Of a stretch of 420 nt of DNA, positions 1-420 are shown piece by piece (position 1 is the stretch's first letter; each line of letters opens with the position of its first letter). The position numbers and the translations under genes were made by a program. Under the pieces are notes generated by a model, which was given only the letters and a program-made list of their open reading frames with translations, did no database searches and was not told the DNA's origin. Location: NCBI RefSeq assembly GCF_003334305.1, contig NZ_QOWS01000077.1. One strand, given 5' to 3'. The stretch comes from Escherichia coli (lineage in GTDB: Bacteria > Pseudomonadota > Gammaproteobacteria > Enterobacterales > Enterobacteriaceae).

Positions 1-420
1 TCCGGGTGCAGTTCCGGGTCCGGCAGCCGGTTTCCTGCCGGGTCCGTCGCATACGGGATATCGATATCCAGGTTCGCCGCCGTGGTGTGGACGCCCGTCA
101 GCCTTCCCGTGTCACTGTAACGGTACTCCCGGCTCTCCTGCGGGCCGCTGATGCGGATTAGCTGTCCGTTGTCGTTCCAGTCGTAGTCCCGGTCAAGCTG
201 CGGGAGGTTCAGGTGCCTGCTCTGTAGCTGCCCTGTGAGGGTGTATGTGCTGGTCAGTTCATATGCTGCATTACTGCCTGCCATGCTGCCGAAGCTGCGC
301 ACCGTCTCACGGTGCAGCCGGTCCCGCGTGTACTCGACCAGCGGTGTTCCGCCCAGCTTCATCCCCGCAAGATAACCGCTGCCATACGTCAGCCACTCCA
401 CCGGCGGCAGACCGTCCGGC
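1..420 (-). CDS. rhs: Rhs-family (rearrangement hotspot) YD-repeat protein, conserved core region; internal fragment, partial at both ends (gene continues beyond both window edges). Paralog not assignable from this window.
   Basis: Seen in sequence: the minus-strand frame with codons at + 419..417 down to 5..3 is open for all 139 codons, while the other five frames each have stops (for example + strand TAA 118-120, TGA 149-151, TAG 159-161 and 184-186). The translation carries YD-repeat-like motifs (DRDYDWNDNGQLIRISG, REYRYSDTGRLTG, LVEYTRDRLHRETVRSFG) that fit the Rhs/YD consensus of conserved Y-x-Y-D followed by G-x-L and a downstream G. GC3 is about 78% by hand count, consistent with genuine coding in this frame. 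Established knowledge: enterobacterial Rhs cores are GC-rich and built from such repeats. No database search was run. Confidence 0.88.

Follow-up and report, generated by a model that had tools for sequence, protein, structure and literature searches.

The 420-base stretch of Escherichia coli DNA analysed here in its entirety (the window) is filled by a single open reading frame. Six-frame translation yields one stop-free frame of 139 codons, on the minus strand, exactly as an earlier reading made from the letters of the window (the sequence-only reading) had claimed, and places one to six stops in each of the other five frames. The translation of this frame reads PDGLPPVEWLTYGSGYLAGMKLGG...DPAGNRLPDPELHP. 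The frame runs past both ends of the window and is therefore left out of an ORF listing restricted to closed frames; that listing returned short ORFs of 51, 46 and 29 aa, which we regard as noise.

Openness of the frame was not taken as proof of coding. In DNA of 64.0% GC an open frame of 139 codons is by itself weak evidence, because mononucleotide shuffling of the window left at least one frame free of stops over 139 codons in 322 of 2,000 cases (16%). Taken together with the two short ORFs on the plus strand (51 and 46 aa), this result would be expected if the frame were a chance product of GC-rich DNA and the region were non-coding or coded on the plus strand. Homology refutes such a reading, which we consider vanishingly improbable: the NCBIfam Rhs core model matches in exactly the 139-codon frame (E 1.4e-81), and PGAP annotates a CDS in this same frame in hundreds of genomes. 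Base composition agrees, with GC contents of 65/49/78% at codon positions 1/2/3, as does the pattern of substitution. Compared with a paralogous core gene of 84% identity, the window carries 67 substitutions and no gaps, distributed 18/15/34 over codon positions 1/2/3, and the amino acid is unchanged in 24 of the 48 codons that differ. Rhs core homology, codon-position GC and substitution pattern are thus the three lines of evidence that argue for a genuine coding sequence. The two plus-strand ORFs, which lie antisense to this strongly supported CDS and are without support of their own, were rejected. No non-coding feature overlaps the ORF in the window: an Rfam search at E ≤ 1 gave no matches, promoter and terminator scans gave no sites, and direct or inverted repeats were absent.

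The resemblance to Rhs core proteins proposed by the sequence-only reading was borne out along the whole fragment. The NCBIfam equivalog NF041261, ‘RHS element core protein’, covers fragment residues 1-139 from end to end, aligning with model positions 794-931 of 1261 at 274.9 bits; the curated full-length cut-off of this model, 2,000 bits, is beyond the reach of any 139-aa fragment. Both repeat models suggested as a check also match the translation, Pfam PF05593 (RHS_repeat) at residues 81-114 with 27.3 bits (E 4.7e-6) and TIGR01643 (YD repeat) at residues 81-115 with 15.9 bits, just above its cut-off of 15.8. The same reading had described several YD motifs. A loose pattern, Y-x(1-3)-D-x(1-2)-G-x(1-2)-L, matches the window peptide three times, and at least three such motifs occurred in 0 of 20,000 shuffles of that peptide; the wording was nevertheless slightly generous, as the window holds one literal YD dipeptide and the remaining motifs are Y-x-x-D variants (Table 1). 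Weak matches to the UPF0257/YnfC lipoprotein family (E about 0.01-0.06) and to the AcnX family of Pfam, and a match to the viral coat protein 6n4v that lacked a significant stretch, were taken as noise, and nothing was found that contradicts the Rhs family assignment. It is close to certain that the window is an internal segment lying about two-thirds of the way along a clade I Rhs core gene of E. coli or of a very near relative such as Shigella; by homology it would encode several YD-repeat β-hairpins of the wall of the Rhs β-cocoon.

Table 1. Positions of the features described in the text, given either within the window or within the inspected genomic regions (L001 to L006) and one RefSeq record.
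Feature	Location	Coordinates	Strand	Basis or remark
139-codon open frame inside a clade I Rhs core gene, part of the Rhs/YD-repeat shell	Window	3..419 (419→3)	minus	Six-frame translation
RHS/YD repeat pair (aa 81-114 of fragment)	Window	78..179	minus	Pfam PF05593, TIGR01643; sole stretch individually significant
YD-type motif YDWNDNGQL	Window	159..185	minus	Pattern search and shuffle test; contains the literal YD dipeptide
YD-type motif YRYSDTGRL	Window	99..125	minus	Pattern search and shuffle test
YD-type motif YATDPAGNRL	Window	24..53	minus	Pattern search and shuffle test
SE11 rhs gene	L001	9611-13876		Window at L001 12001-12420
T6SS-linked rhs gene (STN0717-20)	L004	5620-9855		Window at L004 8001-8420
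Context-A toxin tip	L001	13320-13876		
dsORF-h1	L001	13888-14337		
Context-B toxin tip	L004	9316-9855		
130-aa ORF after context-B rhs	L004	9833-10225		
Small-ORF pair upstream of h1-type rhs (SE11)	L001	8618-9070 and 9336-9530		
ISAs1-family transposase gene and adjoining truncated context-A gene of M10	L003	5877-9876		Truncated gene annotated as pseudogene
e4-type rhs directly after vgrG, 120899	L002	2780-6765		Annotated frameshifted
e4-type rhs directly after vgrG, 602354	L005	1-2765		Annotated frameshifted
D5 arrangement beyond the position-1 T6SS rhs	L006	10404-16420		
Stretch at 84% identity in E. coli S1	NZ_CP010226.1	1988064-1988497		Annotated ‘hypothetical protein | arylamine N-acetyltransferase’

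Extension of the window in genomes that carry it exactly recovered the full ORF of ‘over 4 kb’ that had been predicted. The parent gene of E. coli SE11 (WP_000015432.1) is intact, with 4,266 nt encoding 1,421 aa, and contains the window at nt 2391-2810 (aa 798-936); a second parent, linked to a type VI secretion system (T6SS) (WP_000509071.1), measures 4,236 nt and 1,411 aa and contains it at nt 2382-2801 (aa 795-933). On NF041261 the SE11 protein scores 2,640 bits against the cut-off of 2,000. It contains seven YD_repeat_2x stretches with 173 bits in total and the Rhs-associated core domain (TIGR03696, Rhs_assc_core) at aa 1184-1261 with 83.2 bits. Pfam, which was run on this protein in two pieces (aa 1-1200 and the tip), found in the first piece DUF6531 (aa 49-126), at least ten RHS_repeat matches with E<0.001 and the PF03527 RHS domain. 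The core ends at the junction ...YYDPLQGRYITQDPIGL, with DPIGL at aa 1235 followed by a tip of 182 aa; in the T6SS-linked parent DPIGL lies at aa 1232. Classical E. coli Rhs genes are recognised by a core of about 60% GC or more and an AT-rich tip in a genome of ~51% GC, and in the SE11 gene, read in 300-nt steps, the core has 59-69% GC and the tip 36-41%.

E. coli is the species from which Rhs elements were first described, and copies related to the window are widespread in it. A megablast search of 5,426 complete E. coli genomes found a related copy in 3,656, with a median of two and a maximum of five matching places per genome. At ≥99% identity 284 records match, and all 30 of the best listed matches are identical to the window over 420 bases. 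The product name ‘RHS element core protein’ stands on 29 of these 30, a soft sign of intactness given that frameshifted genes keep the name. An origin of the window from a mobile element was rejected, as plasmid and phage matches are negligible. In the plasmid collection only 10 records match, and the single exact one (NZ_OL790696.1) is 4.8 Mb long and chromosome-sized; in the phage collection the one match, at 84% identity, is to OR845200.1, an unannotated record of 1.9 kb that is probably host DNA. Both records look like issues of database labelling and not of biology.

The identical 420 bases occupy two chromosomal positions, where they belong to genes with different toxin tips. In context A, represented by strains SE11 (L001), 120899 (L002) and 602354 (L005), vgrG comes first, followed by an e4-type rhs and its dsORF-e4, a remnant of IS1, ISAs1 elements, and two small ORFs of 150 aa and 64 aa (DUF3969); then come the 1,421-aa rhs, dsORF-h1 and an ISAs1 remnant, beyond which follow pptA, yddH, nhoA and genes on the narZ side. 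Another rhs and IS elements separate the 1,421-aa rhs from the nearest vgrG, which is ~7-8 kb upstream. In context B, represented by STN0717-20 and D5, the order is tssC-tssB, hcp, vgrG, the 1,411-aa rhs, a 130-aa ORF and ISAs1; this rhs lies directly downstream of hcp-vgrG in a type VI secretion cluster, and past ISAs1 the STN0717-20 chromosome continues with yafV, ivy and fadE. In context B, with its tssB-tssC / hcp-vgrG-rhs arrangement, the T6SS association put forward earlier therefore holds to the letter. Genes for ISAs1-family transposases, which we take to be the H-repeat of the classical E. coli Rhs elements, flank the Rhs genes across the inspected contexts. Tip-specific queries running from the window start through the downstream ORF, which estimate the division in bins of identity and not as a per-genome tabulation, gave 156 context-A and 128 context-B records at ≥99% identity; their sum equals the 284 records that match the window at this level, and the figures fit a split of the exact-match genomes of roughly 55:45.

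Contexts A and B correspond to position 6 (yncG...pptA) and position 1 (dnaQ...fadE), respectively, of Jackson et al. 2009 (PMC2935791), who reported that a position-6 gene of SE11 clusters with position-1 genes. The arrangement, including the core type common to both positions, has accordingly been in print since 2009 (PMC2935791). To the clade I ‘position 1’ core type defined there (WP_000015432.1, WP_000509071.1) the window is identical over its 420 bases, with the same frame, the same positions 1 and 6 and the same core/tip architecture, and there is no difference inside the window. The e4-type core at the same locus is of the same family and length and aligns with the window without gaps, at 84% nucleotide and 83% amino-acid identity; the e4-type gene of SE11 scores 2,770 bits on NF041261 and belongs to the same equivalog. 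For the K-12-type genes RhsD and RhsE, identity is about 82-83% along the core portion of longer queries starting at the window. By this degree of divergence, the e4-type and the K-12-type RhsD/RhsE are classed as a different core subtype from the window.

Six exact-match genomes were inspected, and the copy in M10 differs from the others. There the context-A gene lacks its first 1,185 nt (~1.2 kb), is annotated as a pseudogene ‘missing N-terminus’ and comes directly after an ISAs1 transposase gene, without the 150-aa and DUF3969 ORFs that precede the gene elsewhere; yet the pseudogene still holds the exact 420-base window, and the window cannot for this reason certify an intact gene. A short or disrupted ORF had been named in advance as an outcome that would overturn the first interpretation; this outcome applies to M10, and in the other five genomes the ORF is intact, at 4,236-4,266 nt. 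The window might then derive from a degraded copy (5'-truncated, frameshifted or an orphan core) that no longer yields a working shell and survives only as a relic or as material for recombination. In addition to M10, this account can draw on frameshifts in nearby Rhs genes at the same loci in 120899, 602354 and D5, and on the report that in several lineages positions 1 and 6 hold genes that are inactivated or reduced to relics (PMC2935791). We hold it to be unlikely in view of the five intact contexts, of the product names of the best listed exact matches, soft indicators as they are, and of a window that contains neither stop nor frameshift. As a diagnostic, a 420-base Rhs core read is multi-copy and designates no unique locus, no particular toxin and no proof of an intact gene.

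Alignment of the context-A and context-B genes showed them to be 100% identical from ~nt 1350 to 2850, a tract of ~1.5 kb that includes the whole window. Beyond it the cores are 81-99% identical, and the tips are unrelated, with 23-39% identity in tip columns. The identical tract reflects either a recent duplication or homogenisation of cores between the loci. The window DNA, being identical at both loci, would provide homology for the recombination that swaps toxin tips, in keeping with the tip-displacement model, which invokes homologous recombination (PMC2935791). A more far-reaching proposal is that the tract results from recent or ongoing gene conversion between the position-1 T6SS-linked rhs and the position-6 rhs, and that core exchange is commoner than held by Jackson et al. 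2009 (PMC2935791), in whose view inter-locus core exchange is ‘infrequent, if any’. We judge this proposal quite unlikely; if true, sequence homogenisation would keep the orphan-like position-6 genes loadable onto the position-1 T6SS.

A conserved core joined to a variable C-terminal toxin, as the sequence-only reading expected of an Rhs protein, is what the exact-match parents display, their DPIGL junction being followed by unrelated tips. The context-A tip contains the sequence LGHEFAHAQ, an HExxH motif, and has a weak match to Pfam Peptidase_M91 (E 0.0025); a PDB sequence search with this tip gave no match at E ≤ 1. Together with dsORF-h1 it may constitute a putative metallopeptidase toxin/immunity pair. 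The context-B tip matches the YkuD L,D-transpeptidase catalytic domain (E 4.2e-5), which suggests a peptidoglycan-targeting payload, and has a second DPLGL 22 residues past the canonical DPIGL. By eye, the dsORF-h1 product opens with a signal-peptide-like sequence. The 130-aa ORF after the context-B rhs begins before the rhs stop, giving an overlap of 23 nt; also by eye, it has a lipoprotein-like signal sequence at its start. The signal-peptide-like, hydrophobic N-termini of the two downstream products would fit periplasm-acting toxins and periplasmic immunity proteins. Neither payload is attributable to the window, because the window could serve either tip.

Searches against proteins of solved structure placed the parent among T6SS effectors. 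Its homologues include Pseudomonas aeruginosa Tse5 (8cp6, E 4e-121), the Rhs protein of Photorhabdus laumondii (7q97, E 2e-91), a Salmonella Rhs protein (8qja), Acinetobacter baumannii Tse15 (8uy4) and P. protegens RhsA (7pq5). Tse5, Photorhabdus Rhs, RhsA and Tse15 have a homologous YD-repeat shell (E 4e-121 to 6e-45 against the parent) and, like the parent, an Rhs-associated core/autoprotease region before the tip; they are distant in sequence from the E. coli protein, and their N-terminal delivery regions and toxins differ. The window alone matches Tse5, Photorhabdus Rhs and Tse15 with E 1e-10 to 8e-5, and RhsA (7pq5) gave no match to the window alone. The alignments fall within the repeat shell, at residues 695-824 of Tse5 (8cp6_B) and 915-1049 of Photorhabdus Rhs (7q97_A). 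The same principle of a YD-repeat shell is found in the TcB/TcC (YenC2) components of insecticidal ABC toxins and in metazoan teneurins, to which the parent has weak similarity lying mostly outside the window segment (E 2e-4 with YenC2 and 4e-26 with teneurin-like proteins). These proteins act otherwise, through delivery by a TcA pore or in a cell-surface adhesion role, and have no T6SS context.

In the effectors of known structure, Rhs repeats build a closed cocoon around the C-terminal toxin, and the protein undergoes double autocleavage, at its N- and its C-terminal end (PMC8765631); cocoon, encapsulation and autocleavage are described also in PMC10684867 and PMC11461821. Mounted on VgrG by its N-terminal PAAR region, Rhs is launched by the T6SS into a target cell as a loaded cocoon (PMC8765631, PMC10684867 and PMC11461821). 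For the E. coli protein, we infer from these homologues a cocoon fold and autocleavage, delivery through the T6SS, and a toxicity countered by an immunity protein. In the resulting model, the N-terminal region would attach the protein to the VgrG spike of the T6SS, and the YD-repeat core, window segment included, would fold as a closed shell around the C-terminal toxin. The window segment would contribute a few β-hairpins of the cocoon wall, a conserved scaffold without catalytic role. Autoproteolysis of the aspartyl type at the conserved ...DPIGL junction would free the toxin inside the shell, the loaded shell would be fired into a neighbouring cell, and a small immunity protein encoded just downstream would shield sibling cells. 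The spike-mounting step is the less secure part of the model, because a Pfam search of aa 1-1200 of the SE11 parent turned up no PAAR family even at E ≤ 10; its support is gene adjacency and the statement, made on the basis of other databases, that a PAAR domain is present in long E. coli Rhs proteins (PMC7216683). By eye, the motif ‘PAARQGD’ is present at aa 5-11 of the parent.

The same Pfam result speaks for an alternative in which the gene is intact and its main role is other than T6SS killing, either as an intracellular toxin-antitoxin-like module or through another delivery route. In S. Typhimurium, Rhs elements are reported to work as TA-like modules of type II (PMC7043789), and the pptA-proximal copy does not directly adjoin vgrG. 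Against this, the other context with an identical core lies directly downstream of hcp-vgrG and beside tssBC, the nearest relatives with known structures belong to the T6SS effectors, and the signal-peptide-like candidate immunity proteins and the peptidoglycan-type tip domain fit periplasmic delivery and not an intracellular TA system. We regard the alternative as highly improbable and retain T6SS-dependent delivery as the working interpretation.

The family is thoroughly described and, as the sequence-only reading had itself stated, known and not novel: the window is identical to annotated genes and adds nothing new. Its significance beyond correct annotation is small, these genes being already annotated in hundreds of genomes.

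Several minor observations concern the surroundings of the Rhs genes (Table 1). The small-ORF pair upstream of the h1-type rhs is conserved across several strains; the 150-aa ORF is hypothetical and has a hydrophobic N-terminus, and the first codon of the 64-aa ‘DUF3969 family protein’ reads Leu; the pair might serve as chaperone or adaptor, or be a relic. NCBIfam matched no family to the product of the 150-aa ORF, of the DUF3969 ORF or of dsORF-h1. In both 120899 and 602354, the h1-type gene downstream of the frameshifted e4-type rhs is intact. In D5, an ISAs1 pseudogene separates the position-1 T6SS rhs from a module otherwise met at position 6, made up of a 150-aa ORF, a DUF3969 ORF, a frameshifted rhs and ydcD; this may represent a chromosomal rearrangement via ISAs1 or Rhs repeats, the type of event to which Rhs owes its name. 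The frameshifted rhs of D5 gave no BLAST match to the window and may carry a deletion at the window region. Finally, the ~435-nt stretch in E. coli S1, which has 84% identity to the start of the query, is apparently a small Rhs core relic adjoining nhoA, at position 6.
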